DNA of 64,000 bases from assembly GCA_963817955.1 (NCBI GenBank), contig CAWFQK010000002.1:672001-736000 (forward strand), written 5' to 3'. Shown here one piece after another: positions 16,985 through 46,944 of the stretch. Source of the DNA: an uncultured Gemmatimonadaceae bacterium. GTDB taxonomy: Bacteria > Gemmatimonadota > Gemmatimonadetes > Gemmatimonadales > Gemmatimonadaceae. A program made the position numbers and the translations under genes. The notes beneath the pieces were generated by a model. It worked only from the letters and a program-made list of their open reading frames with translations, was not told where the DNA came from and made no database searches. Within the stretch, counting starts at the first letter, position 1, and each line of letters starts with the position of its first letter.

Positions 16985-17317
16985 ATGAAGCGTTTGTCGA
17001 TCGCTATCGCCGCGCTGTTGATCGCCGGCACGCAACTCCACGCCCAGGATACCGCAAAGAAGGTCACGCCAGCTGGTGCCGCCAAGGCCACCACCAAGGC
17101 TGCGGGCAAGGCCGCTGCCACCAAGACCGCTGCCACCAAGACGGACGCCAAGGTAGCTACGAAGGCCGCCACGGCCGCCACGACGGAAGCCCCGGCTGCA
17201 ACCGCCGCCGCCACCGCTGCTCCAAAGACCGGCGTCAAGGCAGCAAGCACCAAGACAGGCACGAAGGGCAAGAAGACCGCTGCCGCCGCGAAGGATACGA
17301 CAGCGAAAAAGCCGTAA
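16985..17317 (+). CDS. Secreted Ala/Lys/Thr-rich low-complexity protein
   Basis: AGGAG RBS; signal peptide MKRLSIAIAALLIAGTQLHA-QD; AATK repeats. Confidence 0.75.
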   Translation: MKRLSIAIAALLIAGTQLHAQDTAKKVTPAGAAKATTKAAGKAAATKTAATKTDAKVATKAATAATTEAPAATAAATAAPKTGVKAASTKTGTKGKKTAAAAKDTTAKKP

Positions 17318-17339
17318 CGCTCACTGCTTCACCGGCGGG

Positions 17340-17828
17340 TCAAGCCCCGAGCGGGCTCCCGCAGGTCTCGCAGTACCGCGCGTCATGCGCCACGACAGGT
17401 GCGCCGCAACCGGCGCACCTGTCGTGTAAGTACCGGCCGCAGCCCGAGCAGAACGCGGCATCCGATTCCGGACGTGGACCGCACGTCGGACACGTGGGGT
17501 GGCGTTCCCGAAACACGCTCACCGCCACCTCGATCTCGTCATCGCTCGGCGCCGCCGTCACGACGGGACTGTTCGCTTCGCGGCGCATGGCCACCACCGC
17601 CTGCTGCGTGTACCGCGCTCTCAGTTCGGCATAGTCTGTGTCCGACAATTTGCCCGTGGCCCGGTCGAACTCGATCTCGCGCAACGCGGTCACCGCCTCA
17701 TCGCGCTCGCTCATGCGCGGAGCGACCGCGGCATAGTGCCGTACGCTCGTCGTGCCGAAAAACAGTGGGTAGAGCACGAACGCCAGCGCACCGACCGCGA
17801 GCAGGCTTCCGATCAGCAAGGCGGTCAT
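17340..17828 (-). CDS. CcmI-like N-terminus plus double zinc ribbon protein
   Basis: TM, LREIEFDRATGKLSDTDY, four CxxC pairs; last gene of ccm cluster. Confidence 0.8.
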   Translation of the reverse strand: MTALLIGSLLAVGALAFVLYPLFFGTTSVRHYAAVAPRMSERDEAVTALREIEFDRATGKLSDTDYAELRARYTQQAVVAMRREANSPVVTAAPSDDEIEVAVSVFRERHPTCPTCGPRPESDAAFCSGCGRYLHDRCAGCGAPVVAHDARYCETCGSPLGA

Positions 17829-42328: not shown

Positions 42329-44011
42329 CTACCGCTGAACGCGGCTCGCAGCCGAGCGCTCGCGAGCACGCGCGCGGGGGCAGGTTTCGTGCTGCACCGC
42401 CAGTAACGCCATCGCGTTCGCGTTGACGACGCGCATGGCGTCGACGCGCTCGGCGTTCCACCAACGCCATGGTGCATCCTCGTTTTGGCGACGCACGGCG
42501 GCAGAGGATGGGCCCCACTGCCGCAGCAGATGCCGGGCGGCGTCACAGCGCTGCATATCGAGACTGGAATCCGCCTCGGTGCCGGGGATCAGCATCGCGT
42601 TGGGCGGCGAGAGCGTCGCCTGCGTCGCGACGGACGCGGCCTCGCCACCCAAGGTCGCCAGATACCGGATGTCCAGCGGGTGAGCGGCTGACGTCGAGAG
42701 CGATTTGGCGCGCTGCACGTTGATCCGGGCGACGAGCGCGTCGGGCGGGACGAGGTTGAGCACCGCCAACGTAACCAGGCCCGACACGACCAATCCAGCC
42801 ACGAACGGCTGCCCGCGATCCCGAAGCACCGTACGCGCGAGCCATACCAACACGAATGCCAACCACCCCATGGCGATGAGGGGGTAGAGGCGATCGGTCG
42901 TCAAACCGAAGTAGAACATGTAGAGTCGCAGGCGCAGCACCGCCGAGACGATCATCACTCCGAGCAGTACAATGATGGGCAGCGCGAGACGAGTATGCCG
43001 ACGCCGCAACGCAGCTCCGGCGAGTGGATCGAGCGCGGCACGCGTCGCGACCAGCACCGGCACGACGAGCGCGACCACCCACATCACCTGAAAGAATCCC
43101 TGTCGTGCGTACTCCGCGGCAGTGAGCCCCGTGCGCTCCTGCAGGAACCGCTCGCCGCCAAACAGCCAGCCGAACTGCACGGCCACAAAGGCACCAAACA
43201 GGACGAGGAGCGTGCCGAGTGCGCTGGTCACCTCGGGTACGCCGATTCGGATGAGCGGCGCTGCGGGGGCTCGATCCGGAACCTCCCTCGACATCAGTGC
43301 GCCGCGTGCCCAACCGGCGGTCGTCGCGGTGAAGAAGCCTACGAGAAAGACATGCGACACAAGGGTCAACATGTCGAATTCCGGCAGGCGAATGAGGCTG
43401 GCGAAAATCGGGTCAGCCGATCGCAGCAGCGCACCGAATACGAGCAGCAACGCACCAGACAGCGCGACGGCGCGTAGCGCGGTGGGAAACACGCGCGCCG
43501 CGTTTCGCCTGCTCTGCCCACCAGCCACATCTCGCAACGCAAGCGGGATCAACCCAACGATGATCTCACCAACGAGCGATGCGACACCCCATACGGTGTC
43601 GCGCAATCGCTCGGCGAAAAGTGCCGCGCGCGGGCGGGCCAGTGCGACGCCGGCCAGCGTCACGGCGCCGACGGCGGCGATGAAGTCGAAGAACACCAGC
43701 GTTGCGGAATCGCGCCACGCAATCGCGGCGGCGAACAGCAGGGCGGTGGCAAGCCAGGCGCTCGCTTCAACGGGCAGCGCGCGTCTCGCCCGCCACGTCA
43801 TCGCGATCGCGGACAGGACAGCGAGTGCAATCCAGAGCGGGAAGCCGAGTCCATCCGGACCGCCCCGGAGCAGCGCATCGCCGGCGATGCCGAGGAGGAG
43901 CGCGTGCACAAGCACGCGTCTGGCGAATTCGGGGCGAGTCATATCGCCCACGCGCTCGTGTATCGAATGGACCGTTGCGATCGCGTCTGGGTCCGGCGTC
44001 AGGGTCGTCAT
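42329..44011 (-). CDS. DUF4153/DUF4173 membrane protein
   Basis: LLRSADPIF, AEYARQGFFQ, YFGLTTDRL, ARINV, DIRYLATLG. Confidence 0.88.
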   Translation of the reverse strand: MTTLTPDPDAIATVHSIHERVGDMTRPEFARRVLVHALLLGIAGDALLRGGPDGLGFPLWIALAVLSAIAMTWRARRALPVEASAWLATALLFAAAIAWRDSATLVFFDFIAAVGAVTLAGVALARPRAALFAERLRDTVWGVASLVGEIIVGLIPLALRDVAGGQSRRNAARVFPTALRAVALSGALLLVFGALLRSADPIFASLIRLPEFDMLTLVSHVFLVGFFTATTAGWARGALMSREVPDRAPAAPLIRIGVPEVTSALGTLLVLFGAFVAVQFGWLFGGERFLQERTGLTAAEYARQGFFQVMWVVALVVPVLVATRAALDPLAGAALRRRHTRLALPIIVLLGVMIVSAVLRLRLYMFYFGLTTDRLYPLIAMGWLAFVLVWLARTVLRDRGQPFVAGLVVSGLVTLAVLNLVPPDALVARINVQRAKSLSTSAAHPLDIRYLATLGGEAASVATQATLSPPNAMLIPGTEADSSLDMQRCDAARHLLRQWGPSSAAVRRQNEDAPWRWWNAERVDAMRVVNANAMALLAVQHETCPRARARERSAASRVQR

Positions 44012-44123
44012 GCAGAGTACTTTATGATGTAAAGCCTGCAGGCGCAAGAGGCCCTGGAATTGAATCGAACAGACGCGACTATACATCGAATAGATGGTGC
44101 TGCAGGCCGAATCGACGGTAGGA

Positions 44124-44157
44124 ACGCGAACGGCCGCCCTCGGGCGGCCGTTCGCGT
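44124..44157. terminator. Perfect 15-bp hairpin downstream of 44191..44949
   Basis: ACGCGAACGGCCGCC-CTCG-GGCGGCCGTTCGCGT. Confidence 0.75.
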
Positions 44158-44190
44158 GTACTGCGGATTGTGACCTGCTGGTGCGACGAA

Positions 44191-44949
44191 CTACGCGGCC
44201 GACACCTCACTTGCCGACGGAGGAGTTACCAGTGGCGTGGCGACGGGTGATGTGGTGACCGGTGGGGTGGAGACCGGCAACGGCGTCGTCGCAGTCGTCG
44301 ACCCGATCTTGATGCCTGGTTTGCGCTGGATGCGTTTGGCGGTCTGCCAGGCGGCGAGCAAGGCCTGGTCGGCGCCGATGAGCGGCAGGAGTTGCGAATC
44401 GAGCAGCTTGATCATGTTGCGTCCGCGCTGCTCCTCGATCGACAGTCCTGCCGTGGCGCCGCGTCGACGGACGCCGAATGTTGCTCGACCATCGAGCGAT
44501 TCCTTCATCGTCTCCGCCGCTGCCTCGAGGCGTGCGATGAAATCGGTCGACAGCCCGCCGTCGATCAGCACGGCCTCGTGCCGCCGCGACGCCTCGGCCA
44601 TGGCCGCCGCCGAAGCGAGCAACGGCTCCGTCGAGACCTTGGCCCGCGGCATCGTCAGCGAGCTGAAGTCCGGGACTGCCTTGAGCCGGATCTTCGCGAC
44701 CGCCGCGATGCCCTGCATGTGATGCGTGCGGAGTGCGACCCGGAGCGTCTGCTGGCGCGACGTCTCGCCCCGACTCGCGCGACTGCCGTCCTCTTGCGCC
44801 GCTGCATGCGCCGTGAGTTGCGCGATCGTGTCCCTGAGCTCCCGTATCGTCGTCGAGCCGGTCAGTGCGATGAACGGGCCGGGATTCGCTGCGATGAATG
44901 CGTCGCTGCGGCGGAGCGTCTCCAAGGTACTGCCTTCACTGTATTTCAT
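44191..44949 (-). CDS. Uncharacterised alpha-helical protein with Pro/Thr-rich tail
   Basis: GGAGG RBS before MKYSEGSTLETLRR; amphipathic helices; GLSTDFIARL, GATAGL, LLAAWQTAKRI. Confidence 0.75.
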   Translation of the reverse strand: MKYSEGSTLETLRRSDAFIAANPGPFIALTGSTTIRELRDTIAQLTAHAAAQEDGSRASRGETSRQQTLRVALRTHHMQGIAAVAKIRLKAVPDFSSLTMPRAKVSTEPLLASAAAMAEASRRHEAVLIDGGLSTDFIARLEAAAETMKESLDGRATFGVRRRGATAGLSIEEQRGRNMIKLLDSQLLPLIGADQALLAAWQTAKRIQRKPGIKIGSTTATTPLPVSTPPVTTSPVATPLVTPPSASEVSAA

Positions 44950-45058
44950 ATGGCCTCCAAGTGGCCATGGGGGCGCCAAAAGAAAACTGCACGCCGGCGG
45001 GCGCCCGACGCGCCGGCGTGAAGAGAGAGCAACAGACGTGAGACGTGTCGCGATCGCC

Positions 45059-46235
45059 GTCGGGAGTGACGGAATGGTCGCCGAGAGAGACGGACTCGTC
45101 GTCGGGAATGACGGAATGGTCGCCGGATCCGACCGAGTCGCCTTCGGAAGAGTTGGAGTCGCGTTCGGAAGAATCGGAGCCTCGTTCAGACCGGTCGGAG
45201 TCAGCGTGAGAAGCGGTGGTCTTGCCTGTTCGGTGCGGAGTCCGTCCTCGACGCGAGCGCCTGCGAGCTTCACGACCGGGCGTGGCGCCTGCGCACGAGA
45301 CGATTCCATCGGCTGCATCAGCCATCCCTGCTGTTACGCCAGCCATCCCAGCTGAACGCGAGCGACTGGGTCGTACACGCCGATCCATTGGCTGTGGACA
45401 CGAACCCATTCCACGTTGACACGGATGAGTCCCTCGTGACATCGCGCGAGAGAGGTCTCAACGGCCGAGAGTCCGATGTTGACGGCGAGGACTCCTGGCG
45501 TGACGCCGGTCGATCCCTCCGGCACGGCGTGCAGTGGGTGGTGCACACGCGGGCATTCGAGCTGAACGAGCCGGAAAGCCTCCTGGACGGCCGCGAGTCC
45601 GATGTTGACTGCGAGCCGTTCGTGCTTACACGCGAGCTGTTCGTGCTTGCGCGCGAGGAGTTCGTGCTTGACCGCGCGCCGTGCCCTCTCACCACCGGCG
45701 AGTCACCCCTCGACGCGCGTGGGTTCCCTCTCAACCGGAAGGACTCCGCCCTGACCGAGACGCACTCTCAGGTGGACGTCAGGGCATCCCAGCGAACGAA
45801 GCGAGGATTGTGGGTGGACGCGCGTGAGATGGGCGTGAATGCGCGGGAGAGGCGTGTTGGCGAGAGACGGTCCGGTGTGGCGTGAGCGGCATCGGGGCTC
45901 GACACCGGTGTATTCCCTCTTGACCGGAATGACTCCGCCCTGAGCAGTGGCTGGTGCGAGCTGGATGCGCCGGAGTGCCTGCTCGATCGCCGCTCATTCG
46001 GTCTCGACCGCGAGGACTCCCACCTGCACACGCGTCAATTCGGTCGAGACCGCGAGGGATTCCACCTGCACACGCGTGAATTCGATCGAGACAGCGAAGG
46101 ATTCCCTATGAGCAGGCGTCGATTCCGTCTGAACACGCGTGCATCCCCTCTGCACGCCGACCGATTCCTTCTCGGCACGGTCGCATCCCCTCGGGCCGCC
46201 AATCGATTCCTTGTCACCGCCCGTTCGTCCCGCCA
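45059..46235. repeat. ~1.2-kb degenerate 21-bp periodic tract
   Basis: GANTC at 45238, 45427, 45469, 45490, 45595, 45700, 45742, 45931, 46015 (all multiples of 21 apart); also 45093, 45135, 45156, 45198. Confidence 0.85.
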
Positions 46236-46446
46236 TGATCGTAGTCCTATATATTAGTTCCGAAAACAGGGGGTCAGCGCAAGGGCCAATATGTCCGATT
46301 GACCAAAACCGACATGTTTTGACGATTTCGGCGTTAGTACTAGTAGAGAGACACGTCAGTCGCGATGCCGCTGACCCGTGTGGTGTGTCCCCTCAACCTT
46401 CGCGCAGGTCATTGGTTCTCATTCACAGAGCGGTGCCGGCGCGCCG

Positions 46447-46530
46447 TCACTGCCGCTTGAATGCGTACACGCCGAATAGGCCGCCGGCGTAAACGCGATC
46501 CGTGTCGATCGACGGCGCGGTGACTCAATA
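46447..46530 (-). pseudogene. Possible C-terminal fragment of a beta-propeller protein
   Basis: VTAPSIDTDRVYAGGLFGVYAFKRQ* with upstream in-frame stop. Confidence 0.3.
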
Positions 46531-46673
46531 TGCTGGTGCGTCGCCGTGCACCAAGTCACCGCCGAATGGTCTTGGGGTGCGAGCGCCAGGCGCGCTTGAA
46601 CAGGCCGCATAGCGGGCCAATGAGCGTCATGCTCGAGACGCCCCCGCGCGTCTCGAGCAGATCGAATTCCGAC

Positions 46674-46702
46674 TTGCCCCCGCATGCTGAATTCGGCATA
46701 TT
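46674..46702 (+). promoter_or_regulatory. Promoter with palindromic operator of the TA module
   Basis: TTGCCC-N17-CATATT containing ATGCTGAATTCGGCAT; GTG start 6 nt after -10 (leaderless); 12-bp hairpin at 46630-46659. Confidence 0.6.
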
Positions 46703-46708
46703 CCACGT

Positions 46709-46944
46709 GTGAACACCGAGACGGGATCCCTCAAACCAACTGAGTGGATGGGCTCCGCGCTCGACGATCTCCGGGCGCTGCCTGACGAGTCCCGACGCGT
46801 TTTTCGGGTACGCCCTTCACCTGGCGCAACTCGGCCAACACCACCGCCTGGCGAAACGGATGAAAGGCGAATTTGCCGGCCTCATCGAGGTCGTCGATGA
46901 TTTCGATCGCGATACCTACCGCGCGATCTACACGGAAATTGATC
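46709..46944 (+). pseudogene. RelE/HigB (Gp49-like) toxin, frameshifted and C-terminally deleted
   Basis: LKPTEWMGSALDDLRALP..F / GYALHLAQLG..AKRMKG..EVVDDFDRDTYRAIYT; the usual VLHAFQKK C-terminus is absent. Confidence 0.8.

Follow-up and report, generated by a model that had tools for sequence, protein, structure and literature searches.

In the ParR-parC, TubR-tubC and Rep-iteron systems, direct repeats phased at roughly two helical turns stand directly upstream of the small gene for their binding protein. These centromere-like or iteron arrays are plasmid-borne, consist of a few nearly identical repeats overlapping the promoter, and are accompanied by a partner NTPase or a replication origin. 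At the RNA level, CsrB/RsmZ and CrcZ are free-standing sponge small RNAs that present their motifs in hairpin loops at irregular spacing. A third arrangement, that of the type III loci (ToxIN, CptIN and TenpIN), is set out in Blower et al. 2012 (PMC3401426): a promoter, a tandem array of short repeats, a short palindromic terminator and a protein gene follow one another, and the terminator is described as determining how much repeat RNA is made relative to protein mRNA. ToxI, for example, has 5.5 repeats of 36 nt. According to the same source, a promoter at the array start is a preferred, not a strict, criterion, and undiscovered type III families are expected to be findable by exactly this layout.

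The locus described here lies in a window of 64,000 nucleotides, the whole stretch of DNA analysed, from an uncultured Gemmatimonadaceae bacterium; the sequencing runs listed for the stretch include no RNA run and comprise three soil-metagenome DNA runs, with small shares. It centers on a repeat tract of 57 units with a 21-nt period (45043-46239), situated between a promoter-like box (46246-46282) and, on the minus strand, a 252-aa gene (44191-44949). This tract forms the non-coding centre of a gene cassette specific to the lineage, in which the box, the array, a hairpin with a U-rich tail, a Shine-Dalgarno sequence, the gene for a basic protein and a strong terminal hairpin follow one another on the gene strand. 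The features of the cassette are as follows.

46283..46365, minus strand: right cassette boundary, a conserved non-coding block that precedes the box and contains an inverted repeat (46291-46297 / 46310-46315); from 18 aligned right ends.
46246..46282, minus (gene-sense) strand: promoter-like box, composed of TTGCGC, 17 nt, RACTA, an AT-rich stretch and TAGG; from the alignment of cassette right ends.
45232..46239, minus strand: array main block, in which 48 units of 21 nt keep a single phase without indels, non-coding, holding the TGA at 45883; from a rows-of-21 layout.
45043..45231, minus strand: gene-proximal sub-block, 9 units of 21 nt with a 2-nt phase shift, C-rich on the gene-sense strand; from the same layout.
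44971..45020, minus (gene-sense) strand: structured RNA element, a terminator-like hairpin combined with either a pseudoknot or an alternative helix; from covariation and matches of model R1.
44954..44958, minus strand: Shine-Dalgarno GGAGG, 4 nt ahead of the ATG at 44949; read from the sequence.
44191..44949, minus strand: gene for a 252-aa basic protein, predicted helical bundle (residues 1-212) and disordered Pro/Thr/Ala-rich tail (213-252); from a structure model and homologues.
44124..44157, minus strand: perfect 15-bp GC-rich hairpin with loop CTCG, directly 3' of the gene, terminator-like, sharp left cassette boundary; from 12 aligned left ends.

Compared to the type III loci, the cassette has its repeat array, terminator-like hairpin and protein gene in an identical order, behind a promoter-like box, and the array and the hairpin, the latter known here from sequence, agree with the criteria given in PMC3401426. 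The original prediction that no described system has this layout was thus too strong, although the proteins and the repeats are quite different. The type III proteins are ToxN, CptN or TenpN endoribonucleases, whereas the cassette protein is basic, all-helical in its model, and without a match to these. ToxI, as described, has a few near-identical ~36-nt repeats folding as pseudoknots; by contrast, the cassette has 57 units of 21 nt (22-74 elsewhere), with a lag-21 identity of ~0.46 and a folding z-score of ~0. In addition, the hairpin loop of the cassette pairs with a downstream segment, and a single genome has 21 boxed cassettes, most with a decayed gene. The cassette resembles the centromere and iteron arrays in having phased, roughly two-turn repeats just upstream of the gene for a candidate binder, where repeat and protein could co-diversify. 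It differs in that tens of units lie downstream of the box, and the cassettes are chromosomally dispersed with no common neighbour and no matching DNA-binding fold: neither a partner NTPase or replication gene in the flanks of 22 copies, nor a ribbon-helix-helix or winged-helix binder in the protein model, was found. Similarly, the many short, loosely conserved candidate binding motifs on one presumed RNA recall CsrB/RsmZ/CrcZ, which lack the exact spacing, the array length of up to 1.5 kb and the linkage in cis to a gene. Full-text searches on tandem repeats of Gemmatimonadetes/Gemmatimonas and on 21-nt/bp repeats, in a collection that covers few subscription journals, yielded no description of such arrays. 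The arrangement appears to be without a described counterpart, if one sets aside its distant resemblance to RNA-antitoxin loci.

Period and coding capacity of the array

Autocorrelation of 44950-46262 gave a lag-21 identity of 0.458, compared to a mean of 0.276 (sd 0.04) for lags 1-70, with lags 42 and 63 ranking next. Tandem Repeats Finder recovered only short fragments within the tract. The lag-21 filter also picked out four other stretches of the window, with maxima of 0.42-0.47; almost all of their highest-ranking lags are divisible by 3, like those of ordinary coding DNA. The layout in rows of 21 bears out the original count of ~55 diverged units, and likewise the 2-nt shift of a sub-block, here of nine units, and the nine GANTC motifs in exact phase over 777 bp (45238 to 46015). 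In total, 20 GANTC sites occur in 45000-46270; six are displaced from the main phase by +1 base, and four of the five sub-block sites by +2 bases. The motif is not the constrained element: its G (29/48) and A (20/48) are weakly conserved, and it recurs because T10 and C12 of the unit are conserved. A GANTC methylation lattice was rejected on the same counts. The conserved positions of the main block are instead T10 (44/48), T17 (40/48), C12 and C21 (37/48 each), C16 (34/48) and A20 (32/48), and the information content per unit position ranges from 2.09 bits down to ~0.1. This conservation within the unit is strongly position-specific, and the conserved positions agree from copy to copy, where the variability is 0.01 at position 10 and up to 0.196 at other positions.

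Indels between copies are mostly 21, 42, 63 or 84 nt, the array size across cassettes is 22-74 units, and unit turnover is rapid, as two copies with a tract-site difference of ~1.5% yet differ by whole units. Phase is kept across up to 35 motif-bearing units spanning ~51 repeats, though unit identity is only about half. The tract had been called indel-free, which holds for the main block of the window copy but not for the sister copies, at least 12 of 22 of which have 1-2-nt phase slips; in two copies, +1-base phase variants look serially amplified. Overall, the array preserves the 21-nt period and a few unit positions, and unit number and sequence turn over. In prediction, the array RNA folds no better than its shuffles do (z of -0.04, -1.25 and +0.60; sense strand, -0.04 and +0.60); a structured-RNA array was rejected on these scores, which indicate that the units are not structured like ToxI pseudoknots.

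The plus-strand frame is open from 45112 to 46257 but for one TGA at 45883, its sole stop, as originally noted, and could be read as a heptad-repeat protein gene that is interrupted at that position by a sequencing error or by a nonsense mutation of recent date. Its GC content by codon position (0.714/0.503/0.738) resembles that of genuine genes here; moreover, two sister copies keep the frame open over 366 and 386 codons, and gene callers predicted it as a gene in two others. Among 11 related copies, it contains 5 stops against 23.8 expected from column shuffles, a signal treated as weak, since other frames behave alike in some copies and the copies are related. The substitutions do not follow this frame. 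Differences between the window copy and a sister fall on the three codon positions in 18/252, 8/252 and 23/252 cases in the gene, compared to 81/295, 85/293 and 88/295 in the tract, and variability by codon position of the plus frame among nine copies is 0.101/0.138/0.118. The tract shows no codon-position bias among the copies. Codon-level purifying selection is absent in every frame, in agreement with the original view that no frame is convincingly coding.

The openness of the frame has another source. It remains open across the 1-2-nt phase slips, and in one sister copy a single long open frame crosses all three unit registers, so that the openness stems from unit composition. No conserved start codon was found for the tract frames, and the sub-block and main block are shifted against each other by 2 nt. 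Neither strand has a stop-free frame in 9 of 13 arrays from four genera, and no single frame is open in all 13; in other subfamilies and genera, every frame of the array is interrupted by stops. Database relatives of the plus-frame product are confined to this genome. Altogether, the marks of a coiled-coil-type heptad-repeat gene (an open frame with a start, wobble bias and conservation in relatives) were sought and not found, and the tract is non-coding and no broken gene. Two further candidates were rejected: period-3 composition as a coding sign, which is strong in the window subfamily and inconsistent in the others (A/T power included), and minus-strand coding in register with the gene. 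The minus frame of the same codon register has 3 stops here, the open frame upstream of the gene is only ~25 codons long in a relative (L019), and an N-terminal extension is not conserved in relatives.

Cassette copies, hairpin and protein

The 21 boxed cassettes of this genome include that of the window, and strongly 21-periodic DNA makes up ~0.94% of the genome. In all 21, the array lies between the box and the hairpin/gene and begins 1-164 nt downstream of the box; the gene is intact in 8, a remnant in 10 and absent in 3. All 22 blastn copies, which are 70-90% alike and not near-identical, have an array, as do 5 of 8 distant paralogues (upstream of the gene) and 15 of 19 motif-bearing loci in four genera. 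Two bacterial families of Gemmatimonadota contributed 12 homologue loci (10 and 2, respectively); the strongest upstream period is 21 or 42 in every one of them, and the lag identity is at least 0.54 in 8, compared to 15/400 random windows. The period persists at 26-31% protein identity across the two families and is common to all subfamilies; unit sequence is subfamily-specific. By these sequence comparisons, the association of gene and array is old. The original prediction had staked itself on 21-bp tracts flanking the homologous genes, and they do; these arrays and the lack of codon-level selection support its notion that a feature acting at the nucleic-acid level is paired with this protein family.

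For about 24 periodic segments, no gene of the family lies in the vicinity. An HMM scan of 24 orphan-array flanks, run without a positive control, found no family gene, nor did inspection of two orphan loci by eye; model R1 found no strong motif in 12 orphan-array loci. As 8 of 21 genes are intact and ~24 segments are gene-less, the array can persist without a gene in cis. The flanks of the 22 copies have no gene in common and no partner NTPase. Of the marks of an insertion sequence or MITE-type mobile element, no transposase, terminal inverted repeat or target-site duplication was seen in alignments of 12 left and 18 right ends; the only gene of the cassette is one without a family.

The box includes the AT-rich element of the original prediction, whose good ribosome-binding site, here the GGAGG before the ATG at 44949, and perfect 15-bp hairpin are likewise present. 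The box pattern has 21 matches in the genome and none in a reversed control. Its TTGCGC and AT-rich hexamer are 20 nt apart, which is not sigma-70 spacing, and the box was not picked up by a consensus scan. An ECF-sigma promoter was rejected as a general reading, as the GGAAC of the box is replaced by GGAGAC in other subfamilies; an ECF sigma gene adjoins the locus of one relative.

Between the array and the ribosome-binding site, a hairpin with a T-run was detected at 45013-44989 (minus strand). In the stem S1, 45020-45011 is paired with 44999-44990, and seven loop bases, GGGCGCC (45006-45000), are complementary to GGCGCCC (44977-44971), which lies past a U-rich linker (44989-44978) and would form a second helix, S2. 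The window copy and its sister show no difference in 94 positions over 44950-45043. Pairing in S1 and S2 amounts to 93.1% compared to 83.9% in shuffles, none of 500 of which reached 93.1%, and ten pairs over the two helices show double-sided changes (7 of 10 pairs in the S1 stem). S2 was left out of the model behind the covariation alignment. The compensatory changes support both helices as RNA structure, and box and pseudoknot are more strongly conserved than the gene. Searches of Rfam 15 gave two chance microRNA matches only for 43800-46800 (E of 0.15 and 0.23) and no match at E up to 0.1 for five canonical loci. Further downstream, a short 6-bp hairpin is predicted (~44950-44970), whose loop and 3' arm contain the Shine-Dalgarno sequence.

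The 252-aa protein belongs to a lineage-specific multi-copy family. Homology between the cassette copies begins at ~44114 in the 12 aligned left ends. The core pI is 10.0-11.4 in all 12 aligned members. In the structure model, the longest helices have ~55 residues; by helix geometry, such a helix would measure ~80 Å, close to the length of 21 bp. Pfam assigned no family to any of 12 members, and NCBIfam and PADLOC gave no consistent match, with weak BrxD matches against PADLOC in 2 of 12 (best E 9e-4). The model contains no helix-turn-helix or ribbon-helix-helix fold. Structural similarity searches (Foldseek against PDB and BFVD, VIA-align wide) revealed generic long helical bundles only, with a best Foldseek E of 0.075 and a best VIA Z of 9.6, a common score for helical bundles according to the tool. 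The PDB sequence search gave no match below E 0.1, and the ESM Atlas matches were unnamed Gemmatimonadota clusters only. The protein is thus modelled as an all-helical bundle of pI 10-11 outside known families.

A proposed transcribed binding platform and its alternatives

We propose, with a probability of about 0.5, that the array acts as a transcribed leader forming a phased binding platform for the encoded basic protein. The position of the array, which follows the promoter-like box and precedes the covarying RNA pseudoknot, favours a transcribed leader. The array would be transcribed as a long leader in which each unit is a binding module, most likely for the encoded protein, every 21 nt taking up one protomer or an oligomer of fixed size. 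By analogy to the type III toxin-antitoxin loci, the hairpin may set the share of transcripts that end after the array or read into the gene, and the loop-to-downstream helix may then shape the read-through mRNA close to the ribosome-binding site. Several observations point the other way: the box spacing is not that of sigma-70, the array RNA is predicted to fold no better than shuffles, the C skew of the window copy is marginal, arrays last without a gene in cis, and the plus frame is depleted of stops. More tentatively, and with some doubt, the cassettes may represent a new class of cis-linked nucleic-acid/protein pair, in which a basic helical bundle sits in 21-nt register on a repeat RNA (or DNA) whose template immediately precedes the bundle's own gene, the array:protein ratio is metered by a terminator with a pseudoknot, and unit and protein co-diversify into many non-cross-reacting cassettes per genome. 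On this reading, they would constitute a filamentous ribonucleoprotein, or an antidote-toxin system unrelated to known type III families, filling ~1% of the genome.

A lattice at the DNA level would place duplex sites every two helical turns, with one face coated by the encoded basic protein or a nucleoid factor, and act as a roadblock, silencer or pairing site; centromere and iteron arrays, too, stand upstream of their binding protein's gene. The period is exactly 21 in every subfamily, with lags 18-24 otherwise flat, and A/T power at 10.5 nt is 46-73x background in four arrays including the window's (61.5x in its main block). Together with two B-DNA turns per 21 bp, this power fits a DNA lattice too, and the basic protein with helices near 21 bp in length suits a lattice as well. 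However, the principal A/T power of other arrays is at 7 nt, and the array lies downstream of the box without overlapping it. In addition, sense-strand C exceeds G in 14 of 15 arrays and in 17 of 21 boxed cassettes (G is at least equal to C in the other 4/21; 0.33 against 0.31 in the window copy), which a symmetric duplex site does not explain. With neither a helix-turn-helix or ribbon-helix-helix fold in the modelled protein nor a partner NTPase gene or common neighbour in the flanks, we consider this reading rather unlikely; the two-helical-turn lattice originally suggested stands as one option, and the placement of box and pseudoknot favours the transcribed leader.

As a special case of the leader platform, the cassette might be a true type III-like toxin-antitoxin or abortive-infection module, whose toxin is restrained by unit RNAs cut from the array. 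Tandem array, palindromic terminator-like hairpin and gene are all present, each subfamily has its own unit sequences, and genes have decayed more often than arrays, a pattern that a dispensable toxin with a retained antidote would produce. Nevertheless, matches to toxin or defence families are absent apart from the weak BrxD ones, the predicted fold is all-helical, and no structure is predicted in the array RNA. The number of cassettes, at least 20 in one genome, would be unusual, and 22-74 units of 21 nt, about half identical, stand against the 5.5 repeats of 36 nt given for ToxI in PMC3401426. Such a module is unlikely.

Alternatively, the array could be a functionless minisatellite, born once in an ancestral gene's leader, sustained by duplication and loss of units, and travelling with a dispersed, partly decaying gene family. 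The quick gain and loss of whole units, the seemingly serial amplification of off-phase variants, and the many decaying cassettes and orphan arrays are what it would produce. It becomes improbable in the face of unit positions conserved alike across copies, a phase kept over tens of half-identical units, a period that outlasted protein divergence in two bacterial families, and a box and pseudoknot conserved above the level of the gene. A heptad-repeat gene broken at 45883 is highly improbable given the absent wobble signature.

In practice, gene callers render such arrays as long false 'heptad-repeat' proteins, as in two copies here. That a period is conserved without sequence, in two bacterial families and next to a single protein family, is rarely seen and points cleanly to physical register between protein and nucleic acid. 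If the proposed platform is real, the protein would represent a new nucleic-acid-binding family, and the leader a new structured RNA element, a loop-to-downstream pseudoknot on a terminator-like hairpin. The cassettes would then possibly add a new RNA-antidote branch in Gemmatimonadota, to our knowledge a phylum with almost no molecular genetics.

Order of the cassette and its 21-nt array

The cassette lies on the minus strand of the window and comprises, in gene-sense order:

46246-46282, minus strand, box
45043-46239, minus strand, array of 21-nt units
44971-45020, minus strand, hairpin
44191-44949, minus strand, gene of the 252-aa protein
44124-44157, minus strand, terminal hairpin

The order of box, array, pseudoknotted hairpin, Shine-Dalgarno sequence, basic helical protein gene and terminal hairpin is conserved. 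Over 44950-46262, identity is highest at lag 21 (0.458, compared to a mean of 0.276 with an sd of 0.04 across lags 1-70), followed by lags 42 (0.45) and 63 (0.416). Written in rows of 21, the main block (45232-46239) consists of 48 units in a single phase without indels, to which the sub-block (45043-45231) adds nine units at a phase offset of 2 nt. The best-kept positions in the 48 units are T10 (44/48), T17 (40/48), C12 and C21 (37/48 each), C16 (34/48) and A20 (32/48), and the G and A of GANTC are weakly conserved within units. The original prediction proved exact on nine GANTC sites in one phase over 777 bp with those of the sub-block 2 nt off, on a frame antisense to the gene (the + frame) that is open over 45112-46257 except for a TGA at 45883, and on a perfect 15-bp terminal hairpin. 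Indels that separate the copies measure mostly 21, 42, 63 or 84 nt, and in a few cases 1-4 nt.

Another stretch, 16989-17362, passed the lag-21 filter but has no relation to the arrays, since all of its top lags are multiples of 3. It has a stop at its end and, judging by eye from repeated GCC, AAG and ACC codons, may encode a low-complexity tail rich in Ala, Lys and Thr.

Across an alignment of nine copies, the three codon positions of the + frame have variabilities of 0.101, 0.138 and 0.118, highest at the second. When the window copy is compared with the sister closest to it, the three codon positions of the gene show 18, 8 and 23 changes in 252 sites each. The corresponding counts for the tract are 81/295, 85/293 and 88/295, a divergence about four times that of the gene and without a wobble signature; in this pair the 94 positions of 44950-45043 show no difference. 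The + frame has no conserved start codon among the copies examined, and at least 12 of the 22 copies slip in phase by 1-2 nt. An open frame of 393 codons in one copy crosses all three unit registers, and thus openness follows from the unit make-up. In 9 of 13 arrays from four genera, every frame on both strands has stops, and the 13 have no open strand or frame in common. On the coding-like side, GC by codon position resembles that of genes in the window copy, and an A/T period-3 pattern is seen in the window's subfamily, although inconsistent in others. In addition, 11 related copies have 5 stops in the + frame compared to 23.8 expected from column shuffles, a deficit that is weak as evidence, since some copies have it in other frames as well. 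On these sequence comparisons we judge that the tract is not a protein gene; the array is non-coding, with its period and a few unit positions constrained.

Copies of the cassette in the source genome

The source genome (G000; nine contigs, 94% complete, 4.3% contamination), in which the window spans C2:672001-736000, itself holds 48 matches to the + frame product. As revealed by blastn of 43800-46800, a unit of ~2.25 kb (44114 to ~46365) is repeated at 22 places with 68-90% identity, and all 22 copies carry a 21-periodic tract of ~0.8-1.5 kb, including those with a middle that BLAST could not align. The flanks share no common gene, and no transposase, inverted repeat or target duplication was seen at the flanks or ends. 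On the left the unit ends sharply with the terminal hairpin, and its right boundary follows a ~110-nt block that is better conserved than the gene. A pattern from this block has 21 matches in the genome, all in gene-sense orientation, compared to 0 in the reversed control, and in 21/21 the array (22-74 units) begins 1-164 nt downstream. Eight of these 21 cassettes have a full-length gene, ten only remnants or frameshifted pieces, and three no gene. Genome-wide, 69 strongly 21-periodic segments total 42,649 bases (~0.94% of the genome); 21 of them sit directly upstream of a relative of the 252-aa protein gene (family gene) or its remnant, and for ~24 the scans, within their sensitivity, showed no family gene in the vicinity.

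Individual copies differ in their surroundings. Behind the box at C1:443233-443269, one array is followed by two tandem family genes, of which the first covers profile positions 1-250 (E 2e-67) and the second, more divergent, begins 19 nt later (E 6e-20). The window cassette is flanked by a DUF4153 membrane protein gene (42329-44086, minus strand; Pfam E 1.5e-60) and another copy (C4, 1540905) by its 64%-identical paralogue, indicating that at least one cassette was duplicated along with its neighbour. A sister copy in the C4:116690 region starts ~12 bases past an apparent tRNA 3' end, judged by eye, the one case of tRNA-like neighbour sequence among 12 left ends examined. At the flanks of ~10 copies, a repeated element of ~100 nt (60-90% identity) was found near several cassettes, visible as 26-60-residue matches among spurious ORFs. 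An orphan 21-nt array, with a unit resembling that of the C4:914 cassette, occupies positions 1543-2139 of locus L075 (C4:28800-32500), between a 262-aa ORF and a putative smpB read from translation; neither family gene nor hairpin motif was detected in this locus. Runs of a GTGTCCC-like 7-nt repeat adjoin the right ends of several cassettes and also form separate arrays, scored as 21-periodic because three 7-nt units make 21; they are a second, distinct short tandem repeat family in this genome:

C3:64579-64936, 7-nt repeat array
C4:1196080-1196498, 7-nt repeat array
C4:1559586-1559947, 7-nt repeat array
C5:210092-210428, 7-nt repeat array

The protein family and its linkage to the array

The AlphaFold2 model of the protein, from a 12-row alignment, is confident (pLDDT 85) and predicts an all-helical bundle with two ~55-residue helices and a disordered Pro/Thr/Ala-rich tail. 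Fold searches returned only generic long helical bundles (best Foldseek E 0.075, best VIA Z 9.6), Pfam, NCBIfam and PADLOC gave no fitting family, and in the ESM Atlas the protein falls among unnamed Gemmatimonadota clusters. Strong basicity is shared by all 12 members in the alignment, whose core pI is 10.0-11.4 and net charge +6 to +13.

Relatives were found in 17 of 41 genomes searched, the source genome included, and within the genus in 13 of 24 (1-12 matches each, 23-46% identity). A sample of the phylum placed the family in 47 of 301 genomes, with matches in two bacterial families of one order (f1, 6/69; f2, 40/125) and in 0/106 genomes of ten other families. Upstream 21-nt periodicity is present at five of eight distant paralogues in the source genome (27-58% identity), whose arrays score 0.61-0.78 compared to a background 95th percentile of 0.449, and at 15 of 19 hairpin-motif loci from four genera, with the other lags in 18-24 flat. 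At 12 homologue loci (10 from f2, 2 from f1), the strongest lag within 6-45 is 21 or 42 in every case, and eight reach at least 0.54; among 400 random windows of the source genome, the top lag is 21 or 42 in 15.5%, and 15 reach 0.54 at those lags. That such tracts flank homologous genes, as originally proposed, was thus borne out. The unit consensus varies among subfamilies and the 21-nt period is constant. The link between gene and array is old, co-inherited with the protein family at the order level. At one relative's locus (L019), a divergent putative ECF-type sigma factor gene (207-905, read from translation) adjoins the array; none was seen at other loci.

The pseudoknotted hairpin and the reading of the array

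Ahead of the ribosome-binding site, the gene-sense strand carries a GC-rich hairpin with a U-rich tail. Comparison of paralogues revealed complementarity between the loop and a segment just past the U-rich linker. Both sides of this pairing change in step from one subfamily to another, giving at least four pair types, that of the window differing from the common one. A covariance model of seven hairpins, with the stem alone annotated, finds the element in the source genome and also in 17 of 121 genomes of the bacterial family at E ≤0.001. Outside the source genome, seven of eight matches at E ≤3.6e-6 have a downstream homologue, with the matching part beginning 17-43 nt after the motif, and the eighth has an array without the gene; of the weaker matches, four have a homologue, and the 13 without one were taken as chance. 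Across 21 instances (20 distinct) aligned with the model, 93.1% of cells are paired versus 83.9% in shuffles (0/500 reach 93.1%), with both-side changes in 10 of 17 pairs and at most 53% paired in slid controls. The second helix, outside the model, is 92.1% paired with both-side changes in three of seven pairs, and two window-type rows misaligned by 2 columns count against it. Rfam gave no match to the element. Its covariation indicates that the gene-sense RNA between array and gene is under selection.

The location of the array downstream of the box, the adjoining RNA pseudoknot and a C-rich sense strand (14/15 arrays, and 17/21 cassettes) argue for RNA as the acting molecule, and the C-richness runs opposite to the usual sense-strand bias, which is towards purine. 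A duplex-DNA lattice with two turns per unit is nevertheless a serious rival, given the period of exactly 21 and an A/T power at 10.5 nt that is strong in some arrays. Position-specific conservation within units, and a phase kept across units only about half identical, make a purely neutral minisatellite unlikely.

In its order of parts, the cassette matches the criteria for type III toxin-antitoxin loci given in PMC3401426; its protein, unit size, unit number and unit similarity all fail against those families. A search of full-text literature, largely outside subscription journals, found no description of such arrays. On the favoured reading, the array would be a transcribed leader with one binding module per 21 nt, for which the encoded basic protein is the most likely ligand, and the hairpin may meter read-through into the gene.
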